DNA of 64,000 nt from positions 310,001 to 374,000 of the forward strand of contig OZ037839.1 of assembly GCA_964035575.1 (NCBI GenBank). The letters are read 5' to 3'. The position numbers and the translations under genes are program-made. The stretch comes from Rhynchopus sp. YZ270_cl-10 (Eukaryota). Each line of letters begins with the position of its first letter. The stretch's first letter is position 1. Below are positions 29,617 to 64,000 of this stretch, in pieces. The notes under the pieces are model-generated. The model did not search any database and was not told the origin of the DNA. It saw only the letters and a list, made by a program, of their open reading frames with translations.

Positions 29617-29708
29617 GTGTGTCGTTGCTGTGTCTTATGTTTTGTGTCTGTGAGTGGTGGAGTGACGTTACTCTTTGTGAAGAGGTGTATGGACAGAGGA
29701 GAGGATAC

Positions 29709-34763: not shown

Positions 34764-35398
34764 CTGCCCCCTCCAATGTGCCCGGAGGAGAGGTTCAGCC
34801 AAAGGTTCTCGCGCTGGCCGGACTCCTCGCAGACCCAGCTGGAGGGGTCGCTGGAGATCTGTGGTGGGTTTTCGACCTGAGGGAGGGTTGCGGCGAATTT
34901 GCTCTCGGTTGTGGCGTCGACGTCTTCCCAGGCTGTGACGTCTTCTTTGAAAGCGACGCCGTCGCTAGAGATGACAGCTGTGCATGCGTTTTGGACGAGA
35001 GTCGGCAGGTCATCGGAGAGCTCGTGGAAGGTGATGCCCGTAGGTTCCACGACCGCAAGGCGGTGTGTCTTCACAATGTCGTATGCAGGCCCGCCAGAGA
35101 AGCCTCCGTCCACGCCGATGGCCATCTTCGTCGGTGCCTCCTCTGCCTGCGGGCGCTCCACCTTGGCCCAGCTTTCGTGCAAAAAAAGTGTTTCCTGCGT
35201 CTTAGAGGCGTAGGCACCGACGCGGGCACGGCCAAAGCCGTACCACGTGCTCAGGGAGACGAAGAGCCCGCCCTCGCAGAAAGGGTTCTCGAAGGTGAGC
35301 ATGCATTCGTCCTTGAAGACCTTGTCGTACTGTGTTGGTGTCTTGACGGTGCGCATCCCCTTGCGGATCACGGACAGTGCATCTTCAGAGATGGGCAT
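34764..35398 (-). pseudogene. Truncated near-identical 5' copy of USP5 (first ~212 codons)
   Basis: Matches 24927-25561 almost exactly, plus the upstream flank; breaks after SGHIGGG inside the ZnF-UBP region. Confidence 0.9.
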
Positions 35399-35830
35399 GG
35401 TGGCAGAGGAGGGGGAGGGGTGGTGTATGCCTGTGGTGGTGTGTTTGCGAAGGTGTGGTGTTCCCTAGCAGGAATATGGTGCGTGGGGGGGGGGGGGAGC
35501 TTACGTCACAGCTGATGGCCTCGAGGTTTCAATGGGTGTGGGTGTGTATTTGGTGGAATGCTCGAGGGTTTCGCTATTAAAACTGTTTTCTGACGGTACA
35601 CGAAAACGTCGTCAAGGAGATACGTTAGCATCAAACCACACCTGAATACGGTGGAAGAATGAAGTCACAAAGCACAAAAAGGTGCAGTGATGAGCATTAT
35701 TGTTGTGTTCTTAGTCACCCAGCCCACCCCTCAGCTCCGCCTCAGGAGAAGTCGTAGTTGATGGTGCCGTCCTGGTTCTCCTCACTCGTCCTTGGCGCCC
35801 CTCTGCAGGTGGCGGGAACGGCGACGGCTC

Positions 35831-38800: not shown

Positions 38801-41800
38801 CGAAGACCCCGCTCCGCCCGGTACGTGCCGGATTGAGTCTGGCGCAGTAGAGTTTGACGATGTGGTGGATGCTGTTCTGGTAGAGCTGTCTATGGAACTC
38901 TCCTTGGATGGCGCTGGCGATGAGTTGTGTCTTTTCTTCAGATGGGAGTCGCACGGAGACTGGTGCGCAGGTTTTTTCGCATCGATCTAGATTGACTTCC
39001 TTGCGAACAAAGAAGACCGGAACAGTGGGAAGTGTTTGAAAATGGCTTGGTCCCTGAAATTTGTAGACCACCCCTTGCGTGCCTCTACCGATACAGTCTT
39101 CGCGGTCGCGCGCCTTATCCATAGCGTTGAAGAGACATTGGGAGCAGCCGCGTTCCGTGCAATTCTCTCGGTGTACTGCTTCCTTCGTCCGTTTGGTTGT
39201 GTTTGGCTGGACTGTGGTCATGCCTTCTTCGGTGATGACGAAGGTGCCATTTTCTTGGTCGCGAACCTCAATCTGCTCTGGTGTGACGTGGACACACCCA
39301 GAGCTCCACGCGGTTGTGTCCAGCGTAGGCATTTGTGGCAGAGCAGGAGGCTTCGGCGCATTCCTCCTTGTCCTATCACCTGGATGCTGACGTGACTCTG
39401 CCATGTGTTCCCATGTCGCACGCATTGAGAGAAGTGTGTTGCGCAAGAGTTCCTTTTCTGCTGAATCTGTGCAATCAGTGAATCGCTGAATCAGTTCTTT
39501 CTGCACTTCCTCCTGCATGTCTACAACTTCACGCAGTGTGTTGGAGCCTCCTGTGTTCGTCACATCTGTTCTGGAAACATCGGCATCAACAGGTTGCTCT
39601 GCTTCTGGATGTTGACGTGACTCTGCCATGTGTTCCCATGTCGCACGTATTGAGTGAAGTGTGTTGCGCAAGAGTTCCTTTTCTGCTGAATCTGTGCAAT
39701 CAGTGAATCGCTGAATCAGTTCTTTCTGCACTGCCTCCTGCATGCTGACAACTTCACGCAGTGTGTTGGATCCTCCTGTGTTCGTCACATCTGTTCTGGA
39801 AACATCAGCATCAACAGGTTGTGGTTCTGCTTCTGGAAGCTGACGTGACTCTGCCATGTGTTCCCATGTCGCACGCATTGAGAGAAGTGTGTTGCGCAAG
39901 AGTTCCTTTTCTGCTGAATCTGTGCAATCAGTGAATCGCTGAATCAATTCTTTCTGCACTTCCTCCTGCATGCTGACAACTCCACACAGTGTGTTGGATC
40001 CTCCTGTGTTCGTCATATCTGTTCTGGAAACATCGGCAACAACAGGTTGTGGTTCTGCTTCTGGAAGCTGACGTGACATGCGTTCCCTTTCATAGGCAGT
40101 ACTGTGCAGACCTTCATGCTCGCGTGCACGCGACCCCTTGCTTAACCGAACGCCCCCAACTTCACAGCTGCCGTCAGCACGATCCGCATACTCCATCACC
40201 TTCTCGTCAAAGACCACACGATTACTGTTGAAGCCCGCCACTGTCTTGCCTGCCAGCCCTTCAAGGTAACGACCATAATAATACGTCTGGCCTGCTTCCT
40301 CATCTTTTGTGATCGAGTCCCGTGCAGAGGCCTCCATCCAGTGCAAATGCCTCAGGGGACAGTGCATAGTCAGATGGGTGTCTCCGCAAGAACGACATAA
40401 CTGAAAAAGAGAGTTAGCCATTCCTTCCGAAGACGCAGCATCCGACGAAGACGACATCGCTTTGGACGAACTAAAGGCGCTCCGCGGGGAAGGTATAGGA
40501 GGTCTGCTACTCGACGCAGCACTGGACATTGCGTCGTGGTAGTAAGGAGACACGTAGTGAGGATACAGGTGGTGATGTTGGTGGTGATGATGATGATGGT
40601 GGTGGTGAACCGCATGGCCTGGGTGTATGTGACCTGGGTGAATCGGGGGCAAGTACCCCGGCATCATGTGCGTGTAGTGACTAGCAGGGACGGGCAGCGG
40701 TATGAACTGCTCACCCTGAGGCTCTGCCCCTGTGTTTTTCACATCTGTCCCGACGACGGAATCAACAGGTTGATGCTGACGTGACTCTGCCACCATATGC
40801 TGTATGTGGCAGAGATCCTCACAAAAATATACCGAAGACGCAGCATCCGACGAAGACGACATCGCTTTGGACGAACTAAAGGCGCTCCGCGGGGAAGGTA
40901 TAGGAGGTCTGCTACTCGACGCAGCACTGGACATTGCGTCGTGGTAGTAAGGAGACACGTAGTGAGGATACAGGTGGTGATGTTGGTGATGATGATGATG
41001 ATGGTGGTGGTGAACCGCATGGCCTTGGTGGGAGGGAGTAACACGGACTCTTGCGTGCTTTTGCGGCAGCGGCACGAAATCATCCTGTAGGTAGTGGTGG
41101 TAGTGAGATCGACCAAAAAAAGAACAAAAGAAGAGAAGTTGAAAGTGCAAACGCCCACCGTACATCAGTGGATGCAGGCAATGGAAAATAATCTTGTTTC
41201 AGGAAAAGACTCAAGACCAAGTAAAATAGGGGGAACGGGGTTTGAGTTTCTTTAACAAAATATACCGAGGACGACGAAGGCGTAGAAGACGACGGAGACC
41301 ACGTGTCCCGTGCCACAGGAAGTGTGTTCAGCTCTTTCTGCACTTCCTCCTGCATGTCTGCCACTCCACGTAGTGTGTTGGAGCCTCTTGTGTTTGTCAC
41401 ATCTGTCCTGCGAACATCAGCATGAACAGGTTGTGGCTCTGCTCCTGGATGCTGACGTGACTGCGCCTTTCTGCGCTTGCGTTTCTCACGCCGTGAGAGA
41501 TGTTTGTACAGCGAGCCCTGTATGTATTGATTGGTGAGATGCACCAGCAGAAATACATGTAGTTTTTAATGAGATACAATGAGTGGTGCTACCGGCCGCG
41601 TACATATTACGTCGCGTATTTATTACGGGGGGTACTTATTACGTCGCGTACTAATTACGTCGCTTTTTGGGGGCCCGCGGGCCCCCAAAAAGCGACGTAA
41701 TTAGTACACACCGTAAGGTGGAAAAAAAAAATGGGGGTAATCATGTTGGAACACAGCTGGTGTGGGCACATCACTGGGGGGATACCGCCAAACCCACACA

Positions 41801-44800
41801 ATCCCGAAGGCCATCGCAGATCGTGTGAACGAGGAGGAGAACAAACCCAACACGCGGCGCGTGTACACGGCACAGGGTAAGGTGGAAGAAATCGGTGAGA
41901 ACTCTGCCACAGTGCGTCTAGTGCCTCTGTATGCGCAAGAGGAGTGGGAAGTGCCAATGGAGTTCCTCAAATCCGCAATTTGAGCCATTCATTCATATTT
42001 CAGCAAATGTACCGTTTTTTCCGGGTGTCGGTGGGCTGTAATTGGGTGTAATTGGGAAAAAATACCGTTTTTGCCGGTTTTTGCACTTTTTTTGCACGTT
42101 TGACTTGCTCTTCGGTCCCCAAACCCCCAAATTTTCCCACTTATGTGCTGTTTCCCTACAAATCAATATAAAATCGAAAACGGCGATGAAAAAGATGCCT
42201 TGGTGAGTGGTCACAGATGCTGCACCTGCACGGTTCCAATGCGAGAATGGAGGACACACATGTACCGTTTCCCCCATTTGACCTGCAAGAAATGGAGTAA
42301 ACCCGCTGCTTTTAAACACCGGCATTTGCATTTTCGGAATCTGTCCGGCCAGTGGTGGGGTCAATTTGACGAAATGGACAAGTTCTCGTTGTTGGTCAGT
42401 TACTTTTGACCACCACAGATTACATGTGTTTTTACCGGTTTTCTATGTGCTGATGTGTGCTGGGAAGCATGCCACCAGTGTTACAATTTTACAAGGTAAA
42501 AATGACCTATGTACGTACGTATGTGAGGAAGAAGGCTGAGTGGGGATGTAGTGCCACAAAATATATGGAAAGCATGCAGTCCCCTGTCCGGTTACCAAAA
42601 TCCGCCCTTTTCGGGGGTGCCACACCCGAAAAGCGGGTGTCGTCACACCCTCTAGTTGAGTATCCCGTTTGACCCGCTCAGAGGCTGGACCTCACCGTGT
42701 GAGCAAGCAAAACAGGTCACCCCCTGTTAAGCCTCAAAAACACCTGAGTTGTACTAGTGGTGTGACTGGGTATAATTGGGTATAATTGGGCTGTAATTGA
42801 CCCAACGTGGGTCCAGATGGGCTGTGTTGGGTCCGGTTGGGTAGGTGAAAAAACGGTACAGCAAACATTCAAAAAACGTTTGCATGCTGCAATCTCTGTC
42901 CAATGTAACCTTGTAAAGGGCCGAGGGCCAACACACAACACCAAGAGAAATCCCAGAAACCCTTCCCACTCACCTTGTACGTAGATTTTGTTTTTCTTCA
43001 AAAGATTAATTACGTCGCACACTTATTACGTCGCGTACTAATTAAGTCGGCATTTGCCCTAACCGACTTAATTAGTACGCGACGTAATATGTACGCGGCC
43101 GGTATGCAGGGAAGGGGGCGAGTATATTTAAAAAAAACAGAACCAAAGAAGTGGCAAGGCGCAAACCTCTCACTATACATTTTGTTTCACTAAAATACCG
43201 CCTACAGAGGGAAAAGGGGAGCGGAGGTTTCCTTAAAAAATATATACCAAATACGCAATATCCGCAGACGAAAACTTGCTTTTGGACCAACCAAAGAGGG
43301 AAGGATTATCAGGAGGATAATACAATGGCGGGTGGTGGTGGTGATGATGGTGGTGGTGGTAAGCCGCATGGCCTGGGTGTCCCGGGGGAAAGTACCCCGG
43401 CACCGTCCCCGGGTAGCTCGCACCACTGGTGCTGGACCCATCTATGTAGCCCGGGGTGGCAAAGTCGTCTGGCGGCATGGCAGTCGCAGTCGAGGCTGTT
43501 GATACACCGACGCCAGTGGAGGCAGGCCAGCAGGGCTGTGTCTGCACTGCACAGGAGGCCTGCGTTGCGTCGTCGGTCTGTGTCGCTGCAGACTCCTTCC
43601 TGACACGAAGGTGCTCACCCTGCGACGGCAGTCCGTCCGTCTGGCACGACTTCGACATAGACCCCGTCGCACCACTAGCAGGCCCCTCAAAGGAAAATCT
43701 TTGTACCAACAGCTGCGTACCATCTTCGAGCACAGCCTTCGCAACACCCTCCATTTTCATTCTCCTTTGCAACTCTGTCTGCAACACGACGTAGCACCTG
43801 GGGATGCTTGCAATGAAGTTCTCGTTCTGTGATGTGGGTAAGTTTGGGTGTGCAACACTTCACCCATGCCCACCAATCCAACCAGCAGAAAAATACAACA
43901 TGTATTGGTCTGTGCACAAGAAAGCCAGACGCACTTCATGAGGTCTCCTTTACCGACAAAAACCATACCTGAGACAACGGCCTGCAGCAACGCTTGAGCA
44001 CACCCCACATCTCTTGGATCTGTTCTGTGCTGTGTGCGGTGTTTTCCACATTAGGCGTTGCTGCGACCAGGAGACAGCAGAGCATCACTACTGAGGGGGG
44101 GAACTCACGGAAGGAGGAGACATTGTAGCGGACAAAGTCGAAGGCTGTGGGAACAAACTCCCTGTCGTCCACTTGACGTCCGAACATCTCCGCAGAGCAG
44201 GGTACAAGCTCGAGGAAGCGCCGCACCTCTTTGCGCACGCCGAAGTCTTGTGCATAAATCTCTTCTTTCATCACTTCCTCTAAAGCACGCAACGCAGGAT
44301 GTGACCCGCTCATGTCCTTCGTCTTGTCCTCGCTTGCGCTGTGCAACAGCGCTGCCAACCCCACCCCTTTCTTCACAGAAATGTCTGTGTTGTAGACATC
44401 CTCCTGAACACCCTCAGTCAGAACGATTGCAGCAAGATCAAAGAGGCGGACGCCTTGTCCCCCTCGGAGGTGTTCTAAAAGCAACCCCCATGCAGTCAGC
44501 TGATCCCACATTGTGACAACGTGGGTGCTGAAGTCGAGCAGCTTCAGAAGCTCGAGCTCCTGATGGCGAAGAAGGTCTGCAGAGATGGAAAAGTGCTTGC
44601 TGATGGCTGAGAGAACGGGGAACTGAGTACAGTTGAGCTTCACTGCTATAAAAGCCGCGGTGACAGACCAGGTGTGAAAGTCCTGCTCCTGCATGTTGGG
44701 TTGTGAGTGGAGCACGACGTCAAGGTAGTGTTGTGCGATGTGCACAATGTACTCTTGATTTACAAGGCGGCCTAGGGAATGCGTCACCCCTGTTACGTGA

Positions 44801-45887: not shown

Positions 45888-46740
45888 CTAGACCAGCACA
45901 TCATAAGGTTCTTCTTGGTTTTGAATGTCTTCAAGAATGCGTTCTTTGTCGATTTCGGAAATGCTAGCGTGGCGAACGGCGTGAAATAAAACCCCCAAGC
46001 CGCATTGCAAGCATGAGGTACGTAGTGCCTGCATTGAGGCCCTCTCCCCAGGATCCTCAGCCAACAACCCCAACAGCAGCTCCTGAAACAACGGCGTTCT
46101 CGACGCAATCTTTGCCACCAGCTGCGTCACCACCGAGGGCTTCTCCAGAACACCCCGCGCCACCTCTTGAAGGGTCTGCCCCGAAAAGGGCCGCGACAAT
46201 TCACTCATTTCATAGTAATTCACTCCTGACCAAATATCCGCCTTTCTCTTCTACACAAAGTTGTTTGGCCACAAAGAACAAGACATGATTCATCTGAAGC
46301 ATCGTTGATCCCCTCGATGGGGGTGGCGTCCATGACGGAGGTCCAGACCTCGGGAGACCAATAGCGTGGTGTACCGCGGACAACTTCGTCGCTGATGGGG
46401 TGGAACGTTCCTCTGATTTCTTCTGTGGAGTCGGTGTAAGTTGATGCGTCTTCGTTTGGTGCCATGAATGCATCGGATGGATTTTTAATATCGACACATC
46501 TGTTCTGGAAACATCAACATCAACAGGTTGCTGCTCTGCTCCTGGATGCTGACGTGACTCTGCCATGTGTTCCCATGTCGCACGCATTGAGAGAAGTGTG
46601 TTGCGCAAGAGTTCCTTCTCTGCTGAATCTGTGCAATCAGTGAATCGCTGAATCAGTTCTTTCTGCACTTCCTCCTGCATGTTGACAACTCCACACAGTG
46701 TGTTGGAACCTCTTGTGTTCATCACATCTGTTCTGGAAAC
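45888..46740 (-). pseudogene. One 76-aa repeat fused out of frame to a frameshifted NEK-like kinase C-lobe
   Basis: VRGTPRYWSPEVW, KADIWS, YYEM..LSRPFSGQTLQEV and DPGER spread over two frames; no N-lobe; followed by the family 3' flank. Confidence 0.65.
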
Positions 46741-46872
46741 AAAGCTTATAAGATGACCCTAAACCTCTCGTGCTTAGTCACCTTACCAAAAAAATATCGG
46801 GTTGGGATAACACCACCCATTTACTTTACTTCCCCTATTTTTAGTTTTTGGATTATTATTGTTTTCCATCTC

Positions 46873-49800
46873 TCAAATCAAGAAGGGGTCCCCTCGGAGG
46901 AGCTGTTCCGACGTCTTTCTTAGATTGGGATCTCTGATAAGCACTTTGGCAACAAAGTTTGCGGCTTCATCGTTGAAATCAACGCCTTTCGGTGGCTGGG
47001 GACAGTCACCTTCTACTTGGCATAGCCAACGCATGAAGGTGTGCGGGCCTTGCGGCACTTCGTCTGCATACCCGAAGGGGAGGAACCCGAGGAGCATTTG
47101 AACCACTGTGTGGCCCAGCGCCCACATGTCACTTGCCTTGCATGCTTCGCCACGAGAAGCTTCGGGAGACATAAAGAGAGGGGTGCCTTCAGGCTTGTTT
47201 GAGGTGATGCTGCAGAGACGAACGGAGGTGCCAAAATCTGCCAGCTTGCATTGACCGTCGGTGTGGAGAAGCACGTTGGCAGGCCTGAGATCTCTGTGCA
47301 CAATATTGTTTGAGTGGAGGTAGTGCAGACCACGCAGGATGTCCTTGGTGTAGCGCTTTGTGGTTGTGGCAGGAATTTTTCCAAACTGGTCGAGCAGACC
47401 GCAGAGCGATCCACCACTGACATACTCCATGGTGATGATAACGTGCTTGCCATGCACCCCGCAGGAGCTGAAGGACACGATGCTCTCATCCTTGTACTGC
47501 GTCAGCAGACGGACCTCATTGATTGCACCTTCAATCGACTCTTGGGCAGGGTTCTTCCCCCCGAGGCGCGAGAATCGCCCACCCTGCTTCGTTTGCGGCG
47601 GGACTGGAATGCACTTCAACGCACACAACGAACCATCTTCGGACATCCCAAGCCACACTTCACCGAACGCACCTTTACCTATTTGCTTTGTGGAGCGCTT
47701 CCAATGGGCGCCCTGCGCATCAGTGAAGGAACGGACCGGGCCGTCGTCATCGGAGGTGGAGGAATCTGAGTCGGAGGGATCCGAATTCAAGAAGGTGGGT
47801 GTAGATGCGTCGGCGATGGCCTTCTGGAGCTCCTCCCCGGTGAAGATCGGGGATCTGGTGGTAGAAGGCATGGGGGATGTTTCTGCTGAGGAGGGGAGAC
47901 GTTTTCTGCGCCGTGCCGAGAGGGGCACCTTCTCGGGCGAGAAGGAAGACGTCTCGGCGGTGAGGAAGGTCGGCTCTGAGGAAGGTGGGAAGGAAGGCTC
48001 ATGCTCGAGGCCGAACTGCATGCGGGTGGGCTCCTGCGACCACTCCTCCCAGCCAATCAGGCGACGGCTGTAGGGTTGCGGCACCACAGATGGGTTGCGT
48101 TGCACCTCCTGCACAAAGGTGCAGAACCGTTCTAGCTGACAGTTCTCCAGGTTTGACTCAAAAGAGGAGGTCGAGTTGTACTCCTCATTGTTCCCCGTGC
48201 TGCCAATAGGGCCGTCGCTGTCTTTCCGATTGTCCACAGGAAGCCTCAAACACATCGGGTCTGTGCCCGCGTTGAGTGGAGAGTTCGGCTTGCGTGGCTG
48301 CTTCTTCATCATCTCCTGGAACTTCTCGATGCTGGAGGTGTAGTTGCCTTCGATGAAGTCGTGGAAGGCTTCGCGCCACACAACCACGTTGGAGGTGTCG
48401 CCTTCGCGGAGAAGCTGTGGTGTGGGTGGAAGGGGTTTGATTGGATACGACTGCGTGTGGTTCTTATAAAAGGTTGGCAAGATGAGATCTCATGGAAAAA
48501 GGGTGTATTTGTGTGAAAAAAAAATAGGTAAACAGGAATAGGGCGGTATCCTCTCGTGGCGGTGTTCTATATATGCGGGGTACGTACCTCGTAAACCATC
48601 TTGGGCCCTTCAGTTTCGTCGAAGATGACAACGTCGATGGGGCGCGTGCGTTGCTGGTCGGTGACCATCTGTGGGGAGAGAAGGGAGGAGGTGTGAAGTG
48701 GGGTGAGGCCAACATAGTTGTACAAAGGCAGCTCCGACGGGGTTTTTTCGATTATCTTTGTATCTTCAACAAACAAAACAAAAACAAAACCTCACGCTTA
48801 GTCACCATTACAAAACCATATCCGGTATGGTACATACATCCTGCACAGCTTCGGAGATGATGATAGGCGTCTGGAGGACGCGGGAGAGCTCGTTGAGGCG
48901 TCTGCAGTCGTCGAGGACGGAGCCGAGCACGAAGGGCGACTTGTGCTCGTCGTTGCCGATGTTGCCGCAGTAGAGGTTCCCCGAGGCAATGCTGACGGAC
49001 CACCCGACACGGTCCTTCGGGTCCTCAACAGCCTCCATGGCCTTGCGGATCTCGAGTGCAGCCCTGCACGCATACCACCCATGCCGTGCGCACGCATGAT
49101 GAGTGTTCCACGACGCAATCAGCCCATCCGCCCGCAGCTGGAACACATTGCCTGACTCCTGCTGGATGATGTCCAGCACAACCGAGACCAGACTCGACGC
49201 CAAAGCATATGTGTCATGTGTGTTGTTGTCTGCCAGCTCCATGATGCCAAACTCCACCGACAGCAGCGTGCCCTTGCGCTTCACCATTGCATCCCTCGGG
49301 CCCATCTTGCTTGACGGCTGTGAGTCGATCTTCGTCGCAGTCTCCTGCATATTGCGCATGGACGACGTCTTGAGCGCCTCGAGCGCGTCTCTGCATGAGG
49401 GGCGGCGTCCTCTGAACCCTACCAGGCTCTGCCCGCGTGAGAGTGGCTCGTTCCTGCAGGAGAGGTCACTCTTCTGCGAGACGAGGCGGCGGGAGGCATG
49501 GCGCGAGAAGCCGTTGTGGGGCTCCTCGTTGTTGTCTGAGGCTGCGAGCGACATGGCAAGCAGGTCTTCACGGTCGCTCCGCAGCGACTCTGACGCGTTT
49601 TTGAAGGACGCCTTGGGCAACGCAAGCAACGCATCTCTGCACGAATCCACGGCCGCAAATCCGTCCCTGCATAATGAGGAAAGCCTCTCACGCAAGGGTG
49701 CCTTTAACTCTGCTCTTCTTGCCCTGACTTCTGCATGTCTGCCGCTCAGTGTGTTGGAGCTTCTTCTGGTCATCACAGCTGTTCTGGAAACATCAACAGG

Positions 49801-52752
49801 TTGTGGTTCTGCTTCTGGATGCTGACGTGACTCTGCCATGTGTTCCCATGTCGCACGCATTGAGAGAAGTGTGTTGCGCAAGAGTTCCTTTTCTGCTGAA
49901 TCTGTGCAATCAGTGAATCGCTGAATCAGTTCTTTCTGCACTTCCTCCTGCATGTCTGCCACTTCACGCAGTGTGTTGGAGACTCCTGTATTTGTCACAC
50001 CTGATCTGGAAACATCAGCATCAACAGGTTGCTGCTCTGCTTCTGGATGCTGACGTGACTCTGCCATGTGTTCCCATGTCGCACGCATTGAGAGAAGTGT
50101 GTTGCACAAGAGTTCCTTTTCTGCTGAATCTGTGCAATCAGTGAATCGCTGAATCAGTTCTTTCTGCACTTCCTCCTGCATGTCTGCTACTTGACGCAGT
50201 GTGTTGCAGCCTCTTGTGTTTGTCACACCTGTTCTGGAAACATCAGAATCAACAGGTTGTGGTTCTGCTTCTGCATGTTGACGTGACTCTGCCATGTGTT
50301 CCCATGTCGCACGCATTGAGAGAAGTGTGTTGCGCAAGAGTTCCTTTTCTGCCGAATCTGTGCAATCAGTGAATCGCTGAATCAGTTCTTTCTGCACTTC
50401 CTCCTGCATGTCTGCTACTTGACGCAGTGTGTTGGAGCCTCCTGTGTTTGTCACACCTGTTCTGGAAACATCAGCATCAACAGGTTGCTGCTCTGCTTCT
50501 GGATGCTGACGTGACTCTGCCATGTGTTCCCATGTCGCACGCATTGAGAGAAGTCTGTTGCGCAAGAGTTCTTGTTCCGCTGAATCTGTGCAATCAGTGA
50601 ATCGCTGAATCAGTTCTTTCTGCACTTCCTCCTGCATGTTGACAACTTGACGCAGTGTGTTGGAGCCTGCTCTGTTTGTAACATCTGTTCTGGAAACATC
50701 GGCATCAACAGGTTGTGGTTCTGCTTCTGCATGTTGACGTGACTCTGCCATGTGTTCCCATGTCGCACGCATTGAGAGAAGTTTGTTACGCAAGAGTTCC
50801 TTTTCTGCCGAATCTGTGCAATCAGTGAATCGCTGAATCAGTTCGTTCTGCACTGCCTCCTGCATGCTGACAACTTGACGAAGTGTGAGTGGAAGCTCCG
50901 GTGCGGAAAGCGATGTCGCCATGTGTTCCCAAGCAGCACGAATTGGTTCAAGTTTCTCGCGCAAGCACTTCTTTTCTGCTGAATCCGTTTCGCTGAGTGC
51001 TGCTGGCACAGCGTCCTCTAGTTCCGTGGAGTCTTCGTCCTCACTGCTGTCGTCCTCTTCATCACTCTGCATGACTGCTTTCACCCCACGCGCCAATGCT
51101 GTAGCTGCAGTTGCCACCTCTTTCACTACCTCCTGCTTTTCCCCCTTCTTCGCAGCCTTCTGCGCCTGCAACACCTGACTCTGGTTTGGTGTTGCCGGTT
51201 GCGACCCTAAAGCCTCTGTGTTTGTCACATCTGCCTGGATGTCGGCAACGTCGGCATCAACGACGACACCTGCCTGATCCACTTCCTGCTCCACGCCTAC
51301 CATAAGATAACGCACAGTCTCCGTGCCTCCCTCTTCCGCAGCAGTAATCAGACATGTCACCTTCTGTATTTTATGTTCTTTTCTGTCCCCTGCAGTAGCT
51401 TCAAAGTGCTGTGATAGCTCCTCGATATGTTCTGTGACACGCAGTTCCGCACCAGCTTCCACCAACAGCTTCACAATGTCGCGGTTCTCTCCCATGCATT
51501 TACAGACAAGAGGCGAAGGTCCTCCGTCGTCCCATTTCTCGATGCGTGCACCTGAATCAATGAGCTCCTGCACCTCAGCTGCATATGATTTGGGGTAACG
51601 CGCTGCTGCATCGAAACGGATATTGCCATTGCCCTGTATATGCAGCCGTACACCCGCTTCTAGCAACATCCTCACGATATGGACCTCACCCGCCCGACAA
51701 GCCATCATCAGAGGCGAACAGACCAACTCGCTCTTTGCTTCCACGTCTGCACCTGCATCAATGAGCACTTGCACCACAGCTGCACGTCGGTTGGCCACTG
51801 CGTGGTGCAACGCAGTCCAGTGCTGAGCATCAACGAGGTCCACACCCACCTCTCCCATGCACAGAAGGCTTTTCACAAGCGTCGCGAAGCCACGAGCAGA
51901 CACAATCATGAGACATGTCTTGCCATCTCGGTCTCTTGCACCCACATCTGCACCTGCTCGAACCAGTACCTTCACAACATCAGGCACGCTTGACTCGCAA
52001 CCAGACAGCAGAGGCGAGCACTGAAAGGGATCCTTTTTCTCGATGTCTGCCCCTGCATCAATGAGCACCTGCATCACATCTGCATGGTTGTGACGCACTG
52101 CCTCGAGCAACGCAGTGTTGTAGTCCCCACCTACCTGATCCACGTCTACTCGCCCCAAGCCCACAAGATAGCGCACAGTCTCCGTGTGTCCCGCAGTCGA
52201 AGCAGCGACAAGACATGTGCACCCGGAGTAGTCTGTGACACGCAGTTCCGCACCAGCTTGCACCAACACCTTCACAGCGTCGAGGCACCCTCTCATGCAC
52301 GCAAGGAGAAGAGACGAACATCCTATGGCGTCCTTTTTCTCGATGTCTGCCCCAGCATCAATGAGCACCTGCATCACATCTACATGGTTGTAACGTACTG
52401 CCTTGTGCAACGCTGTGTAGGCGTCCTGAGTCCTACTTACCTCATCCATATCCACCCCCAAGCCCACAAGATAGCGCACCGTCTCCGTTTGTGCCTCACG
52501 CGAAGCCGCTATAAGACATGTGTCGCCGTAGTGGTCTGTGACGTGCAGTTCCGCACCAGCTTGTAACAACACCTTCACAATGCCGAGGCACCCTCTCACG
52601 CACGCAAAGAGAAGAGGCGTATAGCCTTCAAAGTCCCTTTCCTCGATGTCTTCGCCTGCATCAATGAACACCTGCAACACATCTTCCAGTACTTCCGCCA
52701 CAGCCCCGTGCAACGTAGTGTTGCTGTGGTTGCCTGTATATTGCCCAGACAT
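46873..52752 (-). CDS. Chimeric family gene C: ankyrin array + 5 repeats + class III cyclase-like domain + STE11/MAP3K kinase; exons 48838-52752, 48588-48668, 46873-48414
   Basis: Cyclase-like SIASGNLYCGNIG...FVLGSVLDDCRRL; phase-0 GT..AG introns at 48669-48837 and 48415-48587; intact kinase motifs IGKGAFGEVW, ALK, MEYVSGGSL, HRDLRPAN, DFG, GTPLFMSPE. Confidence 0.8.
49780..50885 (-). repeat. Tandem array of the ~228-nt coding repeat (5 units)
   Basis: Same core as at 26630-27940. Confidence 0.95.
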
Positions 52753-53742
52753 TACTCGTGTGTCGTTACTGTGTCTTATGTTGTGTCTGTCAGTGGTGGA
52801 GTGACGTTACTCTTTGTGAAGAGGTGTGTGGACAGAGGAGAGGATAAGTGCAGGAGGAGAATACAAGCAATTGCTAAGGGGGAAACCGTGGTGTGCTGTA
52901 AGGGTGGAGGTCACCACACACGAGCATAGAAACGTCCCCAAACTGACGCTCAAAGTCCGCTGCCAGCTCTCTCATCATACTGAAATAGGCACATTCACTT
53001 TGAGCACAACAGCAGAAGGAAAGCAAACCCAGACTGCGTAGGTGGCGAAGAGCCGAACATTGCAGTGCCGTGATGTGGGATGCAGTGTTGTGGGGACCTA
53101 AAAGGAATGTGGATGCAGTGTAAAGCGTTCATAGCGATCTGTCCTGACACGTTGTTGTCTCCTTTTGCGTTGTTATGGTGACGTTATTCGTTTTGTTTTC
53201 TTGTTTTGTTTTCCCTCCCAAATCCATTGTACCAAGCTTCCTCAGGCACGGCCTCGAGGGTCTCGCTACTCAAACTGTGTACACGGATACGTCCTCAAGG
53301 AGATACGTTGTCATCAAACCACACCTGCATACGGTACGAAGAATGAAGCCACAAGGCACAAAAAGGTGCAGTGATGAGCATTATTGTTGTGTTCTTAGTC
53401 ACCCAGCCCACCCCTCAGCTCAGCCTCAGGAGAAGTCGTAGTTGATGGTGCCGTCCTGGTTCTCCTCACTCGGACGTCCTTGGCGCCCCTCTGCAGGTGG
53501 CGGGAACGGCGGTGATTCTTCGCCTGCAACACTCTTGTGGCTGGAGCGGCGATTCATCTTCAGGCGTGTGCCCTCGCTGCTGGGATGGTGCTCCGACAGC
53601 GTTCCCTCTGCTGCATCTGTGCACTCAGTAAATAGCTGAATCAGTTCGTTCTACACCACCTCCTTCATGTTTACAACTAGGCCCTTTACATACGCTCTGG
53701 TACTGGCACTCCGCTCAATTGACTTGCGCCTGGCACGTGTCC

Positions 53743-56700
53743 CTACAACATATGCATCGTACCCATGGAAGGGTGTGCCCGTCGCAGTGTAACACATCGT
53801 CCTGCGGAGTCAGAATATTCTGTAATTAGTGACGAGGCTTCCACAGCCTCACGGGCTTTCGCGTGCTTCTGTTTGTCACATTTGTCTGCAAAGGAACCCT
53901 CGGTAAGCCCTGCGGTGGCTGTGCCGCTGGCTGTCGCCGTGACGCTTGCTGTCAGGTCCAAAGCATTGGGTGAGCGGGTTCCCTTCGAAGCTGGGGAAGT
54001 GGACCCATCGCGTGCTCCCTTCTTCTTCTTCGGGAGGTCCGGCTTGATGACACTGTCTCCAAAAAGTCGTCCAAAACGCTTGCTCCTCTCTGCGAGGGTT
54101 TCTTTGTGCTTGAAAACGTGAAGCGAAGTGCAGTTCTCCTTCGAACAGGTCATTGCATCCTGAAACTCCTTGCACAGCACCAGAAGGGAGGGGTGCCCTT
54201 TGAATTGTCCTTGGCATTGGCGGCAGCGGAGGGTAATGACTCCAGCCTTACTGCGGACGTTGTCCCAGGAGTTGTGCGAGCAGGGGCGTTCTTCGGCGAA
54301 GATTGCTGCCTTCCTTTTCGGCTTTTTTGCCAGTTCCTCTCCTTCACGCTGCCTCTCTGCCTCCCCCAGTTTCTTATCTACTTTCGCAAGAGACTCGTCA
54401 TGTTCTTCGACAGGTTGTGGTTCTGCTTCTGGATGCTGACGTGACTCTGCCATGTGTTCCCATGTCGCACGCATTGAGAGAAGTGTGTTGCGCAAGAGTT
54501 CCTTTTCTGCTGAATCTGTGCAATCAGTGAATCGCTGAATCAGTTCCTTCTGCACTGCCTCCTGCATGCTGACAACTTCACGCAGTGTGTTGGAGCCCGT
54601 TCTGTTTGTCACATCTGTTCTGGAAACATCAACATCAACAGGTTGTGGTTCTGCTTCTGGATGCTGACGTGACTCTGCCATGTGTTCCCATGTCGCACGC
54701 AGTGAGAGAAGTTTGTTGCGCAAGAGTTCCTTTTCTGCCGAATCTGTGCAATCAGTGAATCGCTGAATCAGTTCGTTCTGCACTTCCTCCTGCATGTCTG
54801 CCACTCCACGCAGTGTGTTGCAGCCTCTTGTGTTCATCACATCTGTTCTGGAAACATCAACATCAACAGGTTGTGGTTCTGCTTCTGGATGCTGACGTTC
54901 CCATGTCGCACGCATTGAGAGAAGTCTGTTGCGCAAGAGTACCTTTTCTGCTGAATCTGTGCAATCAGTGAATCGCTGAATCAGTTCTTTCTGCACTTCC
55001 TCCTGCATGTCTGCCACTCCACGCAGTGTGTTGCAGCCTCTTGTGTTCATCACATCTGTTCTGGAAACATCAACATCAACAGGTTGTGGTTCTGCTTCTG
55101 GATGCTGACGTGACTCTGCCATGTGTTCCCATGTCGCACGCATTGAGAGAAGTTTGTTGCGCAAGAGTTCCTTTTCTGCTGAATCTGTGCAATCAGTGAA
55201 TCGCTGAATTAGTTCCTTCTGCACTTCCTCCTGCATGTTGACAACTTGACGCAGTGTGTTGGAGCCTCTTGTGTTCATCACATCTGTTCTGGAAACATCG
55301 GCATCAACAGGTTGTGGTTCTGCTTCTGGTTGCTGACGTGACTCTGCCATGTGTTCCCATGTCGCACGCATTGAGAGAAGTGTGTTGCGCAAGAGTTCCT
55401 TTTCTGCTGAATCTGTGCAATCAGTGAATCGCTGAATCAGTTCCTTCTGCACTGCCTCCTGCATGCTGACAACTTCACGCAGTGTGTTGGAGCCCGTTCT
55501 GTTTGTCACATCTGTTCTGGAAACATCAACATCAACAGGTTGTGGTTCTGCTTCTGGATGCTGACGTGACTCTGCCATGTGTTCCCATGTCGCACGCAGT
55601 GAGAGAAGTTTGTTGCGCAAGAGTTCCTTTTCTGCCGAATCTGTGCAATCAGTGAATCGCTGAATCAGTTCGTTCTGCACTTCCTCCTGCATGTCTGCCA
55701 CTCCACGCAGTGTGTTGCAGCCTCTTGTGTTCATCACATCTGTTCTGGAAACATCAACATCAACAGGTTGTGGTTCTGCTTCTGGATGCTGACGTGACTC
55801 TGCCATGTGTTCCCATGTCGCACGCATTGAGAGAAGTCTGTTGCGCAAGAGTACCTTTTCTGCTGAATCTGTGCAATCAGTGAATCGCTGAATCAGTTCT
55901 TTCTGCACTTCCTCCTGCATGTCTGCCACTCCACGCAGTGTGTTGCAGCCTCTTGTGTTTGTCACATCTGTTCTGGAAACATCGGCATCAACAGGTTGTG
56001 GTTCTGCTTCTGGTTGCTGACGTGACTCTGCCATGTGTTCCCATGTCGCACGCATTGAGACAAGTTTGTTGCGCAAGAGTTCCTTTTCTGCTGAATCTGT
56101 GCAATCAGTGAATCGCTGAATCAGTTCCTTCTGCACTGCCTCCTGCATGCTGACAACTTCACGCAGTGTGTTGGAGCCCGTTCTGTTTGTCACATCTGTT
56201 CTGGAAACATCAACATCAACAGGTTGTGGTTCTGCTTCTGGATGCTGACGTGACTCTGCCATGTGTTCCCATGTCGCACGCAGTGAGAGAAGTTTGTTGC
56301 GCAAGAGTTCCTTTTCTGCCGAATCTGTGCAATCAGTGAATCGCTGAATCAGTTCGTTCTGCACTTCCTCCTGCATGTCTGCCACTCCACGCAGTGTGTT
56401 GCAGCCTCTTGTGTTCATCACATCTGTTCTGGAAACATCAACATCAACAGGTTGTGGTTCTGCTTCTGGATGCTGACGTTCCCATGTCGCACGCATTGAG
56501 AGAAGTCTGTTGCGCAAGAGTACCTTTTCTGCTGAATCTGTGCAATCAGTGAATCGCTGAATCAGTTCTTTCTGCACTTCCTCCTGCATGTCTGCCACTC
56601 CACGCAGTGTGTTGCAGCCTCTTGTGTTCATCACATCTGTTCTGGAAACATCAACATCAACAGGTTGTGGTTCTGCTTCTGGATGCTGACGTGACTCTGC

Positions 56701-59022
56701 CATGTGTTCCCATGTCGCACGCATTGAGAGAAGTTTGTTGCACAAGAGTTCCTTTTCTGCTGAATCTGTGCAATCAGTGAATCGCTGAATTAGTTCCTTC
56801 TGCACTTCCTCCTGCATGTTGACAACTTGACGCAGTGTGTTGGAGCCTCTTGTGTTCATCACATCTGTTCTGGAAACATCGGCATCAACAGGTTGTGGTT
56901 CTGCTTCTGGTTGCTGACGTGACTCTGCCATGTGTTCCCATGTCGCACGCATTGAGAGAAGTCTGTTGCGCAAGAGTTCCTTTTCTGCTGAATCTGTGCA
57001 ATCAGTGAATCGCTGAATCAGTTCTTTCTGCACTTCCTCCTGCATGTCTGCCACTCCACGCAGTGTGTTGCAGCCTCTTGTGTTTGTTACATCTGTTCTG
57101 GAAACATCGGCATCAACAGGTTGTGGTTCTGCTTCTGGTTGCTGACGTGACTCTGCCATGTGTTCCCATGTCGCACGCATTGAGACAAGTTTGTTGCGCA
57201 AGAGTTCCTTTTGTTCTGAATCTGTGCAATCAGTGAATCGCTGAATCAGTTCCTTCTGCACTGCCTCCTGCATGTCTGCCACATCGCACAGTGTGTTGGA
57301 ACCTGTTCTGTTTGTCACATCTATTCTGGAAACATCAGAATCAACAGGATGCTGCTCTGCTTCTGGATGCTGACGTGACTTCGCCATGTGTTCCCAAGCA
57401 GCACGAATTGGTTCAAGTTTCTCGCGCAAGCGCTTCTTTGCTGCGGAATCCATTTGACTCAGTTCGCTGAGTGCTGCTGTGTTCGTCACATCTGCCTGGA
57501 TGTCGGCAACGTCGGCATCAACGACGACACCTGCCTGATCCACTTCCTGCTCCACGCCTACCATCAGATAACGCACAGTCTCCGTGCCTCCCTCTTCCGC
57601 AGCAGTAATCAGACATGTCACCTTCTGTATTTTATGTTTTTTTCTGTCCCCTGCAGTAGCTTCAAAGTGCTGTGAGAGCTCCTCGATATGTTCTGTGACA
57701 CGCAGTTCCGCACCAGCTTCCACCAACAGATTCACAATGTCGCGGTTCTCTCCCATGCACGCACAGACAAGAGGCGAAGGTCCTCTGTCGTCCCATTTCT
57801 CGATGCGTGCACCTGAATCAATAAGCTCCTGCACCTTAGCTGCATATGATTTGGGGTAACGCGCTGCTGCATCGAAACGGATATTGCCATTGCCCTGTAT
57901 ATGCAGCCGTGCACCCGCTTTTAGCAACATCCTCACGATATGGACCTCACCCGCCCGACAAGCCATCATCAGAGGCGAACAGACCAACTCGCTCTTTGCT
58001 TCCACGTCTGCACCTGCATCAATGAGCACTTGCACCACAGCCTCATCTTTGCTGGACACTGCGTGGTGCAACGCAGTCCAGTGCTTAGCATCAACGAGGT
58101 CCACACCCACCTCTGCCATGCACAGAAGGCTTTTCACAATTTTCGTGGATCGACCAGCAGCAATCATGAGACATGTCCTGCCATCTTCGTCTCTTGCACC
58201 CACATCCGCACCTGCTCGAACCAGTACCTTCACAACATCATTCACGTCTGACTCGCAAACCAACAGCAGAGGTGAGCACCCGAAGGTCTTTTTCTCGATG
58301 TCTGCCCCTGCATCAATGAGCACTTGTACCATATCTACATCGTTTCGTAGCACTGCCTTATGCAGCGCAGTCCAGTCGCCCTCGGTCCTACCTACCTGAT
58401 CCACATCCACGCGCCCCAAGCCCACAAGATAGAGCACAGTCTCCGTGTGTACCTCTTCCACCGCAGCGGTAAGACATGTGCGGCCGTTGTGGTCTGTGAC
58501 ACTCGCACCAGCTTGCACCAGCACCTTCACAATGTCGAGGTACCCTTCCTTGCACGCATGGAAAAGAGGCGTACGTCCTGCACTGGAGTCCTTTTTCTCG
58601 ATGTCTGCCCCTGCATCAATGAGCACCTGCACCACATCTGCATGGTTTTGACCCACTGCCTCGTGCAACGCTGTGTTGCCACTCCGGTCCCCACCTCCCT
58701 GATCCACATCCACCTGCCCCAAGCTCACAAGATAGCGCACAGTCTCCGTGTGTCCCTCACACGAAGCCAGGGTAAGACATGTGCGGCCGTTGTGGTCTGC
58801 CACACGCAGTTCCGCACCAGCTTGCACCAACACCTTCACAGCGTCGAGGTACCCTGACCAGCACGCAAGGAGAAGAGGCGTACGTCCTTCAGAGTCCTTT
58901 TCCTCGATGTCTGCCCCTGCATCAATGAGCACCTGTACCACATCTGCACGTCCTTCCTCCACTGCCTCGTGCAACGAAGTGTTCCTGTGTATGCGTGCGA
59001 GTTTCCCATGTTTGTTGCCCAT
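53743..59022 (-). CDS. Chimeric family gene D: ankyrin array + 13 repeats + Cys/His zinc-finger-like module (1759 aa)
   Basis: Ankyrin consensus; 13 RFTDCTDS units; C-terminal PCSHNSWDNVR..LRCRQC..CKEF..C...C..LH; intact ORF. Confidence 0.85.
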   Translation of the reverse strand: MGNKHGKLARIHRNTSLHEAVEEGRADVVQVLIDAGADIEEKDSEGRTPLLLACWSGYLDAVKVLVQAGAELRVADHNGRTCLTLASCEGHTETVRYLVSLGQVDVDQGGGDRSGNTALHEAVGQNHADVVQVLIDAGADIEKKDSSAGRTPLFHACKEGYLDIVKVLVQAGASVTDHNGRTCLTAAVEEVHTETVLYLVGLGRVDVDQVGRTEGDWTALHKAVLRNDVDMVQVLIDAGADIEKKTFGCSPLLLVCESDVNDVVKVLVRAGADVGARDEDGRTCLMIAAGRSTKIVKSLLCMAEVGVDLVDAKHWTALHHAVSSKDEAVVQVLIDAGADVEAKSELVCSPLMMACRAGEVHIVRMLLKAGARLHIQGNGNIRFDAAARYPKSYAAKVQELIDSGARIEKWDDRGPSPLVCACMGENRDIVNLLVEAGAELRVTEHIEELSQHFEATAGDRKKHKIQKVTCLITAAEEGGTETVRYLMVGVEQEVDQAGVVVDADVADIQADVTNTAALSELSQMDSAAKKRLREKLEPIRAAWEHMAKSRQHPEAEQHPVDSDVSRIDVTNRTGSNTLCDVADMQEAVQKELIQRFTDCTDSEQKELLRNKLVSMRATWEHMAESRQQPEAEPQPVDADVSRTDVTNTRGCNTLRGVADMQEEVQKELIQRFTDCTDSAEKELLRNRLLSMRATWEHMAESRQQPEAEPQPVDADVSRTDVMNTRGSNTLRQVVNMQEEVQKELIQRFTDCTDSAEKELLCNKLLSMRATWEHMAESRQHPEAEPQPVDVDVSRTDVMNTRGCNTLRGVADMQEEVQKELIQRFTDCTDSAEKVLLRNRLLSMRATWERQHPEAEPQPVDVDVSRTDVMNTRGCNTLRGVADMQEEVQNELIQRFTDCTDSAEKELLRNKLLSLRATWEHMAESRQHPEAEPQPVDVDVSRTDVTNRTGSNTLREVVSMQEAVQKELIQRFTDCTDSAEKELLRNKLVSMRATWEHMAESRQQPEAEPQPVDADVSRTDVTNTRGCNTLRGVADMQEEVQKELIQRFTDCTDSAEKVLLRNRLLSMRATWEHMAESRQHPEAEPQPVDVDVSRTDVMNTRGCNTLRGVADMQEEVQNELIQRFTDCTDSAEKELLRNKLLSLRATWEHMAESRQHPEAEPQPVDVDVSRTDVTNRTGSNTLREVVSMQEAVQKELIQRFTDCTDSAEKELLRNTLLSMRATWEHMAESRQQPEAEPQPVDADVSRTDVMNTRGSNTLRQVVNMQEEVQKELIQRFTDCTDSAEKELLRNKLLSMRATWEHMAESRQHPEAEPQPVDVDVSRTDVMNTRGCNTLRGVADMQEEVQKELIQRFTDCTDSAEKVLLRNRLLSMRATWERQHPEAEPQPVDVDVSRTDVMNTRGCNTLRGVADMQEEVQNELIQRFTDCTDSAEKELLRNKLLSLRATWEHMAESRQHPEAEPQPVDVDVSRTDVTNRTGSNTLREVVSMQEAVQKELIQRFTDCTDSAEKELLRNTLLSMRATWEHMAESRQHPEAEPQPVEEHDESLAKVDKKLGEAERQREGEELAKKPKRKAAIFAEERPCSHNSWDNVRSKAGVITLRCRQCQGQFKGHPSLLVLCKEFQDAMTCSKENCTSLHVFKHKETLAERSKRFGRLFGDSVIKPDLPKKKKGARDGSTSPASKGTRSPNALDLTASVTATASGTATAGLTEGSFADKCDKQKHAKAREAVEASSLITEYSDSAGRCVTLRRAHPSMGTMHML
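54410..57400 (-). repeat. Tandem array of the ~228-nt coding repeat (13 units, higher-order structure)
   Basis: Diagnostic variants (KVLL, SLRATW, NRTGS, 15-nt deletion WERQ) recur in order. Confidence 0.95.
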
Positions 59023-59834
59023 GTGTGTCGTTGCTGTGTCTTATGTTGCGTGTCTGTCAGTGGTGGAGTGACGTTACTCTTTGTGAAGAGGTGTGTGGAC
59101 AGGGGAGGGGATAAGTGCAGGAAGAGAATACTGCTAGGGGGGAAACCGTGGTGTGCTGTAAGGGTGGAGGTCACCACACACGAGCGTAGAAACGCCTGCA
59201 AACTGGCGATCAAGTCCGCTGTCAGCTCTCTAATCAGACTGAAATATAATGACAATTATTGATGCGAGAGGCACATTCACTTCGAAGCACAAGAACCCTG
59301 CAGCCAACAGCAAGGAAGGTGTGAAAATGAAACCTAATGGCTTGCCCGTACCTTGGTGTGAATAGGGGTGGTCCATAAAAGGATCCAGCTGGGGTCCTCA
59401 ACAAAACAAGTGGGAAGGAGAGGAAGATAGTAAACATGGGGTGGGGGAATCGTTAGGAATGTACACTGTGTTGCCCGGAGGCGTTTGGGATTTTATACTT
59501 TACTTTACTTTAAAAAAAAACTGTGTGAACACCCGAGGGTGGTCACCTTATAGGATTACTGTTATGCACTGTCGGTGATCTTGCAGTCAACTGTCAACGC
59601 GAAAGTGCTTTGGGTATTTACAAAACAAACTGCACAGAAAATATCCTCACTCGGAAATTCTCCGCAATTCTCCGCTGCATGGAACACAACTTTTTGCGGC
59701 ATATGACGGCACAGCACCACCCAGGATGCTACACATATTTGTCTAGCCCTGTGCGAAGAGTGATCCATTCCCACAATAGCGTGAGGTTGTCCTTGGTGTT
59801 GATGGAAGAGCTGTGGCGAACCCCCTCCCCCGCA

Positions 59835-62974: not shown

Positions 62975-63884
62975 CTCCGGTGTGTTCCTTCCCCCTCGCT
63001 ATCGCTATCGCATGAGTCTTACGTAGGGGAGAGCGTGGAGTAGTGTTCTGTGAGGGGGTAGAAGGGGGTGGTGTGGGGTGCTAAGGTACGTATTGTTTCG
63101 TATTAATACGAATATGTGGGGGGGGTAAGGTCACGTATTTTAGAACACTGGGGGTGGGGTGAAGTGATGCCTGGTATGGAATTGGTCCCCAACGGCCCCA
63201 ACATAGCACTGCATCGCACCCCTCCCTTTCGACAGCCAGTAATTCTTTGCGCAGAATAATGGCTTAAAGAAAACAACCGTGGCAAGACTCGAACCTACAA
63301 CCGCCTGATGGTCATATACTCAACGGTTTAAAATGGTGCTTGTAAGTAGGGGGGGGGTCAAAGGCAAAGGACAGAATCAGCTGTGTTGTTGATACACAAA
63401 AGGTGCATTGCTAAAGCAGAAGGACAATAAACAAAACCTACATTCGAACTTTTTCTGCAAAAGTGATTTTCATGGGAGTGCATCCCAATCGGACAAAACT
63501 CAGGGCAGTGTAAAAACCCCCCCGTTCATATTTTTGTTTGGTACGCTACGTTAGTTGGTTGCACGATCAGCCAGGGCGTTATGGGGTTAGGTGTGGCATT
63601 TTATTCTTGATGTGCAAATAAATAAAAGAACATTTCTACCCAGAAATGGATCTCAAAAAAAAAGGGAAAAAAACCCTTTGCCTGAAGTACAGAAATGAAG
63701 TGAGTGCACAATAGAAGGGGCAGGGGAATAAATAAAAAGTCTCAGACATTTGCAAGTGAATGACAAGTGGTTCGTTTGGTATTCCACTGGTCACCTGCCA
63801 GCTAGGCCGTCGTGTGTCAAAGCAAAGTCGTTCCGTGGTATATTATTGTGTACATTCAGGAGAACAGCGAGTGTGTGATCAGAT

Positions 63885-64000
63885 TTAAGTTAGATGTGAA
63901 ATGTCAATGATCTCGACACTCTCACCTCCGTACATCACCACATCACCACAGCTGCTGATTGCAAGACCGTAAGTGCGATTACGAAAGTCACGATGCAAGA
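63885..64000 (-). CDS. 3' end of a second UBL-WD40 gene copy (partial)
   Basis: 63725-64000 is nearly identical to 10940-11214, including the stop codon and 3' UTR. Confidence 0.8.
   Translation of the reverse strand, partial: LHRDFRNRTYGLAISSCGDVVMYGGESVEIIDISHLT

Follow-up and report, generated by a model that had tools for sequence, protein, structure and literature searches.

Three ankyrin repeat genes, here termed A, C and D, lie within the 64,000 nucleotide stretch of Rhynchopus sp. DNA analysed in this work (the window), and the groove codons of their repeats are very probably under diversifying selection. From sequence comparisons, we hold with somewhat better than even confidence that these genes belong to a recently expanded ankyrin family with a diversifying groove, the products of which would be soluble, intracellular binders of foreign proteins.

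All three are uninterrupted ORFs sharing a common plan: a leader of 10-13 residues precedes two full units and a diverged unit 3, after which come a distal block, an in-frame array of 76 aa repeats and an unrelated tail. The features are as follows:

53743-59022, minus strand: gene D, an uninterrupted ORF of 1759 aa with an ankyrin array, 76 aa repeats and a basic Cys/His tail
58678-58983, minus strand: D unit 1 (ankyrins a, b and c)
58375-58677, minus strand: D unit 2
58081-58374, minus strand: D unit 3; its a repeat is of the same class as in other units, while b and c are diverged, in a form common to A, C and D
57478-58080, minus strand: D distal block; two ankyrins modelled confidently, then a degenerate low-confidence remnant
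54410-57450, minus strand: D array of the 228 bp (76 aa) unit; 13.5 copies, in frame
53743-54409, minus strand: D tail, with a Cys/His cluster; matched by zf-MYND at sub-threshold level only (E = 0.022)
48808-52752, minus strand: gene C, an uninterrupted ORF of 1314 aa
52420-52722, minus strand: C unit 1
52120-52419, minus strand: C unit 2
51820-52119, minus strand: C unit 3
51217-51819, minus strand: C distal block
49791-50887, minus strand: C array of the 228 bp unit; 4.8 copies
48832-49230, minus strand: C tail, weakly matching class III adenylate cyclase domains (best E = 7.6e-4)
26140-29616, minus strand: gene A, an uninterrupted ORF of 1158 aa
29296-29577, 28990-29295 and 28690-28989, minus strand: A units
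28087-28689, minus strand: A distal block
26629-27943, minus strand: A array of the 228 bp unit; 5.8 copies
59023-59246, minus strand: D 5' flank, present also at C (52753-52987) and in part at A (29617-29707), 7-8% different
53018-53423, minus strand: non-coding segment 3' of D, recurring 3' of A (25713-26099) and partly at 35561-35857

Each full unit is composed of three different ankyrin repeats (a, b and c) and is about 101 aa, or 303 bp, in length. The three-ankyrin super-repeat proposed by an earlier sequence-only reading of this DNA was borne out at the DNA level as arrays of 303 bp period in C (52031-52684) and D (58288-58983), with 82-83% matches; TRF gave no 303 bp array in A, the units of which were excised by motif instead. 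All eleven motifs quoted in that reading are present in the translations, four of them (TCLIAASRGGH, TCLITALRWEH, AVRYNQ and AVGRNR) at 28954-29394 in gene A, which lies beyond the interval it had given, 48808-59022. As the flanks of A, C and D are shared as well, the genes are recent segmental copies. A and D start with MGNKHG (29614-29616 and 59020-59022), which we take to be a possible N-myristoylation motif, and C and several relatives encoded together on another contig record start with MSGQ, at a different ATG of the shared flank. Weak Pfam matches to the 76 aa repeat in searches with whole proteins were dropped because no single stretch passed alone. A single unit of the 76 aa repeat had no Pfam match, and Atlas gave no usable match to it; the tail of C had no Pfam match at 0.05 and is likely, from its weak domain matches, to be a degenerate class III adenylate cyclase-like piece.

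The 33-residue helix-turn-helix-hairpin repeats that define ankyrin proteins are evident from Pfam (Ank_2 in D, E = 4e-93), from the AlphaFold model of D, which has 11 confident ankyrin repeats extending to about residue 370, and from fold matches to that model, the top one being a DARPin and the best ones DARPins and ankyrins. Beyond residue 374 the model is a low-confidence remnant, with pLDDT mostly below 50. No Pfam match to NACHT or NB-ARC was found in the three window proteins, eight relatives or 71 members of the main family of relatives (all ORF-based proteins), and the Walker A pattern was absent from 139 of 139 ORF-based proteins. No N-terminal effector domain was found, the window ORFs beginning 10-13 residues ahead of the first ankyrin, and F-box, SOCS, BTB and PRANC domains were absent from the window proteins, from the eight relatives and from 25 of the 27 Pfam families listed for the 71 members. 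A strongly hydrophobic 19-mer occurs in 5 of 136 relatives and in none of the three window proteins; the proteins of the family are, on their sequences, likely to be soluble.

Repeat positions were numbered by the DARPin scheme, fixed before testing, with the numbering anchor and the status of position 33 as a site randomised in DARPins being assumptions of ours. Positions 2, 3, 5, 13 and 14 were taken by spacing from the variable, concave-face positions given in passages of PMC10484509, and the correspondence to DARPin positions that had been claimed for the variable residues agrees with both this source and the predicted structure of D, in which they fall in the hairpin and helix 1. In the six full units of the window, across the 97 of 108 alignment columns analysed, pN was 0.457 at the six DARPin positions (2, 3, 5, 13, 14 and 33) and 0.124 elsewhere, with pS of 0.178 and 0.161 respectively; none of 100,000 random column sets was as variable, and amino acid identity among the units was 82% at scaffold columns alone and 24% at the groove. 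The clustering of variation at the binding surface is thus upheld, and the likeness to a DARPin library stands for positions 2, 3, 5, 13 and 14; position 33 is not hypervariable in the window units (pN 0.157), and positions 15-16 of the turn are variable too.

Public contigs match 58297-58589 without difference in runs X1 and X2, 52348-52765 in X5, and 51200-52067 and 52156-53500 in X6. Because these contigs, from runs of which one may be the window's own source, reproduce the variable stretches letter for letter, assembly or sequencing error was ruled out as the origin of the variable letters.

A contrast between groove and core is insufficient as evidence of selection, because every ankyrin family has a more variable groove; the relevant comparison is of the groove with the neutral rate. 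The DNA-level tests used the six full units of the window's three genes, with columns 33, 77, 78 and 101-108, which are rich in indels and include the loop after repeat c, excluded throughout. Models M7, M8 and M8a and the fixed-site models were run in our own Python code (F3x4, four to five beta classes, one or two starting points) rather than PAML or HyPhy, and site posteriors are naive empirical Bayes. A fixed-site model with two classes gave dN/dS of 7.5 at the six DARPin positions and about 1.0 at the rest; with four classes, dN/dS was 10.1-11.1 at positions 2, 3, 5, 13 and 14 across ML, star, by-gene and by-position trees (LRT 87-98 relative to a dN/dS of 1, or dN/dS 9.2 and LRT 55 with multi-base changes) and 3.7-4.7 at the rim positions 9, 10, 15 and 16. 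The signal was kept when the groove was given its own silent rate, which was not raised (LRT 29.8, p = 5e-8). M8 was preferred over M7 (LRT 65.9) and M8a (65.4), and likewise when double and triple changes were allowed (33.6 and 32.3), placing about 28% of sites at dN/dS 7.5-8.8. Twenty sites had an M8 posterior above 0.9, 18 of them in the hairpin, helix 1 or turn: eleven, out of 13 columns, at positions 2, 3, 5, 13 and 14, seven at positions 9, 12, 15 and 16, and two elsewhere.

Approaches less dependent on these models gave the same picture. A tree-free bootstrap over the groove, including position 33, gave dN(groove)/dS of 3.82 (CI 2.47-6.09). Groove diversity by codon position was 0.51, 0.48 and 0.21, with diversity at the first two codon positions about 2.4 times that at the third; outside positions 2, 3, 5, 9, 10, 13, 14 and 33 the values were 0.12, 0.11 and 0.13. 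By repeat, the M8 LRT was 30.1 for b, 18.0 for c and 4.2 (six units) or 8.8 (nine units) for a. At eight groove positions of unit 3, counting gave a pN of 0.27, below the pS of 0.33, yet M8 was significant. Three control samples of six 76 aa repeat units, taken from the same genes, gave LRTs of 1.3, 6.2 and 3.1; the marginal LRT of 6.1 for the distal block is as large as the worst of these. On such repeats, then, the method errs somewhat on the liberal side, and small LRTs mean little. Substitutions were not evenly spread, and groove dN/dS was well above that of scaffold and neutral codons, so that neither of the two outcomes set beforehand as speaking against diversifying selection was seen.

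These data also bear on the proposal that positive selection is not involved at all, the groove being unconstrained and locally hypermutable, whether by decay of CpG sites, by changes spanning several bases, by short tracts converted from distant copies or by a diversity-generating retroelement. The higher pS of the variable units (0.14-0.19) relative to the distal block (0.033) and the flanks (0.06-0.08) would fit such a process, as would the improvement of the null models by multi-base rates. Neutral codons simulated to the observed pN, however, gave a pS of about 0.5, and the observed pS was reached in 0 of 600 runs under each of four settings, one of which drew a new random tree per codon, a result that rejects neutral hypermutation. 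CpG decay was rejected in that scaffold variability was alike at CpG and non-CpG sites (0.132 vs 0.118). The adenine-specific substitution of a diversity-generating retroelement was not seen: groove variants arose from all four majority bases (A 20, G 22, C 14 and T 10) and scaffold adenines were not raised. Silent diversity beside hypervariable codons was not raised (p = 0.36), a Pfam scan of 17 of the window's 119 ORFs found no reverse transcriptase, and self-comparison of the window, which showed ankyrin copies only within the A, C and D ORFs, gave no invariant template repeat. The no-selection explanation is largely refuted, and we regard it as highly improbable.

The sequence-only reading had also described the scaffold as almost unchanged even at the DNA level, and the distal ankyrin block as nearly invariant. 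The likeness of the scaffold copies is real, but purifying selection on them is not significant in the window, helix 2 plus linker having a dN/dS of 0.70 (p = 0.2 against 1) and another estimate for the scaffold being 0.93. From LVCSPLMM onward the distal block does have a low pN, 0.029, but its silent sites are equally invariant (pS 0.033), and positions 13-17 of its first repeat do vary (pN 0.41, against 0.012 at the other 24 codons). As scaffold and distal block are alike at silent sites too, their likeness is mostly a matter of youth or homogenisation, and recent copying explains it better than demonstrable constraint; scaffold constraint is visible only at the depth of the wider family.

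The region surrounding the ankyrin genes carries further repeated sequence. Elsewhere in the window the 228 bp unit lies at 35831-41165, 41328-41507, 46495-46741 and 53598-53678, forming in-frame arrays in two kinase-related ORFs as well as solitary or partial copies, which indicates that it moves independently of the ankyrins. Variation within this 76 aa repeat consists of a few reshuffled sites (pN 0.062, pS 0.109). The window has a eukaryotic gene content, encoding, by Pfam, a ubiquitin hydrolase, the best named match to which among the 120 listed was from Diplonema papillatum (52% identity, rank 5), as well as kinases, a cyclin-like protein and a WD40 protein; it has no tRNA genes. The hydrolase match makes a diplonemid host likely. 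The 5' part of the hydrolase gene is duplicated (34764-35561 vs 24927-25719, with six differences in 635 coding bases) and comes immediately downstream of the flank common to the ankyrin genes, an arrangement suggesting that block duplication may carry neighbouring gene starts along. Two near-perfect palindromes of 74-78 bp with related 16-mers, at 41639-41716 and 43021-43092, are possibly the hairpin termini of a mobile element. The WD40 gene has its 3' end (10928-11214) repeated at 63710-64000 with 96.6% identity, at the end of the window, and a second copy of the gene therefore probably lies beyond. A 453 bp unit is present twice at 883-1800 (93% matching, in a GC-rich stretch), and 15438-17022 contains three arrays of an 11 bp purine-rich minisatellite, of 55, 19 and 4 copies.

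A protein search with the ankyrin part returned at least 120 matches, all listed ones being ENA records, 42-69% identical and from proteins of 227-723 aa. The listed matches come from about 37 contigs (by hand count), all but one of 0.19-2.7 Mb, and many are clustered; six members lie together on one contig (P0001, P0002, P0005, P0006, P0121 and P0135, the contig-mates). The family sample used here consists of 136 proteins other than the window's three, with 467 distinct units and a putative common origin in one organism. Relatives are paralogues with one to nine near-full units per protein, most main-family genes encoding about 550-560 aa with three units. Over the 467 units, entropy was 3.4 bits at positions 2, 3, 5, 13 and 14 and 0.98 in helix 2, identity was 66% at the scaffold and 14% at the groove, and position 33 reached 2.25 bits, mostly through repeat c.

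The runs that contain the window's exact sequence also contain many related contigs (2,973 in X1), and the loose ends of those in X1 read as main-family scaffold; by our own mapping, 22 of 24 listed loose-end rows (of 758) begin at the hairpin or at the end of helix 1 and the turn. Summed contig depth of the scaffold was hundreds of times that of single-copy pieces, a figure that is no measure of copy number. In JGI metagenomes the best 80 of 314 loci were generic ankyrins only 25-39% identical, with no close relative among them. A viral origin was rejected, as only generic ankyrins matched, viral fold matches being 15-30% identical and viral contigs generic. Among the papers listed in literature searches, none dealt with this family or with selection on ankyrins in diplonemids, and the word 'ankyrin' is absent from the main text of the D. 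papillatum genome paper (PMC10161547).

Of the 136 relatives, 83 (P0383, for example) have a near-invariant domain at the N-terminus: its mean entropy is 0.55, none of its columns is hypervariable, and it models as three ankyrin-like, hairpin-less helix pairs. This domain is lacking from the window subfamily, together with the basic patch that precedes it in many relatives, and the window genes are a derived subfamily without the N-domain. The window units form a clade with those of the contig-mates, apart from 25 sampled main-family units, and the selection measured here thus postdates the origin of the subfamily; within the clade they do not group by gene, as expected from shuffling. Among the contig-mates, P0001 has its ankyrin array fused to a partial kinase, P0002 ends in a piece of Argonaute N-domain (E = 1.3e-5, below the curated cut-off), and in P0001 and P0135 the 76 aa repeat passes directly into a new ankyrin unit 1, marking a recombination junction.

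The fate of the subfamily may differ from that of the family as a whole. The main family could be functional while A, C and D are by-products, rearranged where the DNA is prone to recombine, with tails and 76 aa repeats that are hitch-hiking; this proposal is compatible with the favoured explanation, but we think it unlikely. The scaffold dN/dS being not below 1, the near-equality of pN and pS in the poorly modelled distal block, the occurrence of the 228 bp unit in kinase ORFs and in solitary copies, and the duplicated gene fragments of the region are all as such by-products would have them, and passages of PMC10161547 describe tandem repeats of gene ends in D. papillatum that are absent from mature mRNA. 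Against this, the ORFs have stayed open over 1158-1759 codons, indels among the units preserve the frame, and the separate clade of window and contig-mate units dates the measured selection to after the subfamily arose.

The variety of grooves bears on a further proposal, that the family diversified after duplication to bind many host proteins as adaptors, with no ongoing arms race. Fusions to kinase and cyclase-like pieces would suit a signalling role, and passages of PMC5120217 describe a combination of relaxed and positive selection as the general way in which the paralogous repeats of a protein diverge. Yet groove signatures are distinct in 463 of the 467 units, adaptors for conserved host targets would be expected to be fixed and shared between species, and searches of proteins, JGI metagenomes and viral contigs found no close relative beyond the ENA record set; diversified adaptors accordingly seem decidedly unlikely.

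The location of the proteins within the cell raises another alternative. In 53 of the 83 main-family proteins that have the N-domain, a basic K[RK]x[RK] patch similar to a nuclear localisation signal lies ahead of it, a raw count obtained with a loose regular expression. Selection could be real and the opponent lie inside the genome, these being nuclear factors that chase the products of transposons or selfish elements as KRAB zinc fingers and PRDM9 do. The Argonaute N-domain piece of P0002 would fit such a role, and D. papillatum is described in passages of its genome paper as rich in transposable elements (PMC10161547). Conversely, the looseness of the pattern weakens this raw count of patches, the window subfamily has neither patch nor N-domain, and a nuclear location would suit defence against nuclear symbionts or viruses equally; conflict within the genome is as improbable, in our estimation, as the adaptor proposal.

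Recognition of foreign proteins, by contrast with these alternatives, is a cause of the diversifying selection to which we give moderate credence. The unit is repeated within and between genes, its number differs among relatives, and amino acid changes at positions 2, 3 and 5 of the hairpin and 9-16 of helix 1 and the turn are several times faster than silent ones. Through ordinary duplication, unequal crossing-over and conversion, units would gain in number and be recombined and the scaffold would stay young, and selection would retain point mutations that alter the concave face; each gene might then offer its own binding surface, six to nine or more repeats long. The targets would be foreign proteins that change quickly, for instance proteins of viruses or of bacteria living inside the cell, and diplonemids carry bacterial symbionts in cytoplasm and nucleus, as stated in passages of a recent preprint (bioRxiv 10.64898/2026.01.29.702485). 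The weakest steps of this scheme are the driver, presumed to be conflict with invaders, and the output, which may pass through a partner bound to a constant part rather than a NOD switch. Candidate constant parts are, for the main family, the helical N-domain, which is invariant, and, for the window subfamily, the distal block, the 76 aa repeats or the swapped tails. It is likely that A, C and D are part of a natural binder library for recognising intracellular invaders.

A bolder version of this scheme, which we consider doubtful, draws an analogy with antibodies: hundreds of NOD-free genes, each combining a constant region with a shuffled variable three-repeat unit, would form a germline ankyrin repertoire of intracellular immune receptors, in which the host pieces swapped into the window subfamily (kinase, Argonaute N-domain and cyclase-like) might serve either as outputs or as decoys, much as integrated domains do in plant NLRs.

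How single-celled eukaryotes recognise invaders inside the cell is largely an open question, and a family of this size, in which the scaffold is fixed, selection has left a measurable footprint and the variable positions are defined, provides a handle for finding ligands. If the favoured explanation is true, the hypervariable repeat strategy of fungi would extend to the Euglenozoa without the NLR switch. The data also show which ankyrin positions natural selection has varied (2, 3, 5, 13 and 14, then 9, 10, 15 and 16, plus a length-variable loop), which bears on the design of binder libraries.

Several known systems resemble this family in part. The cullin-ligase adaptors of nematodes and plants, with F-box or MATH-BTB domains, likewise form large families that join a constant part to a positively selected variable binding part, but no F-box, SOCS or BTB match was found here in 71 main-family members or the window proteins. 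Compared with DARPins, the window units are natural, consist of three repeats, show extra variation at positions 9, 10, 15 and 16 and have a length-variable loop after repeat c; at position 33, which DARPin designs randomise, they are not hypervariable. The DARPin positions 45, 46, 48, 56 and 57 of the first internal repeat, as given in passages of PMC10484509, nevertheless equate by spacing to 2, 3, 5, 13 and 14, the most variable positions here. Large, tandem and recently duplicated ankyrin families have been described in Bodo saltans virus, with 148 copies, joined to pieces of other genes and suggested to be decoys (PMC5871332), and in Bathycoccus prasinos, with 149 copies and a family-specific N-terminal part ahead of the ankyrins (PMC3491373). 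The present family has no close sequence relationship to either and lies among ordinary nuclear genes, and a site-level selection test is available for it, whereas none is reported in the passages on those families.

The closest parallel is with the hypervariable ankyrin repeats of fungal NLRs, which, like their TPR and WD counterparts, are similar within and between genes and vary in number; passages of PMC4986451 report selection at the same positions in, for example, Pa_3_8560 of Podospora, acting on the hairpin and the inner helix, the parts from which the concave face is built. Neither the window genes nor the main family have a NACHT or NB-ARC domain or a known effector domain, the repeating unit here is three distinct ankyrins, the identity of units (82% at the scaffold) is below the high-conservation criterion of 85% over 100 aa, and there are at least 136 further genes here, compared with a few in fungi. 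By analogy, the family, though itself no NLR, appears to work in the manner of fungal NLR ankyrin arrays.
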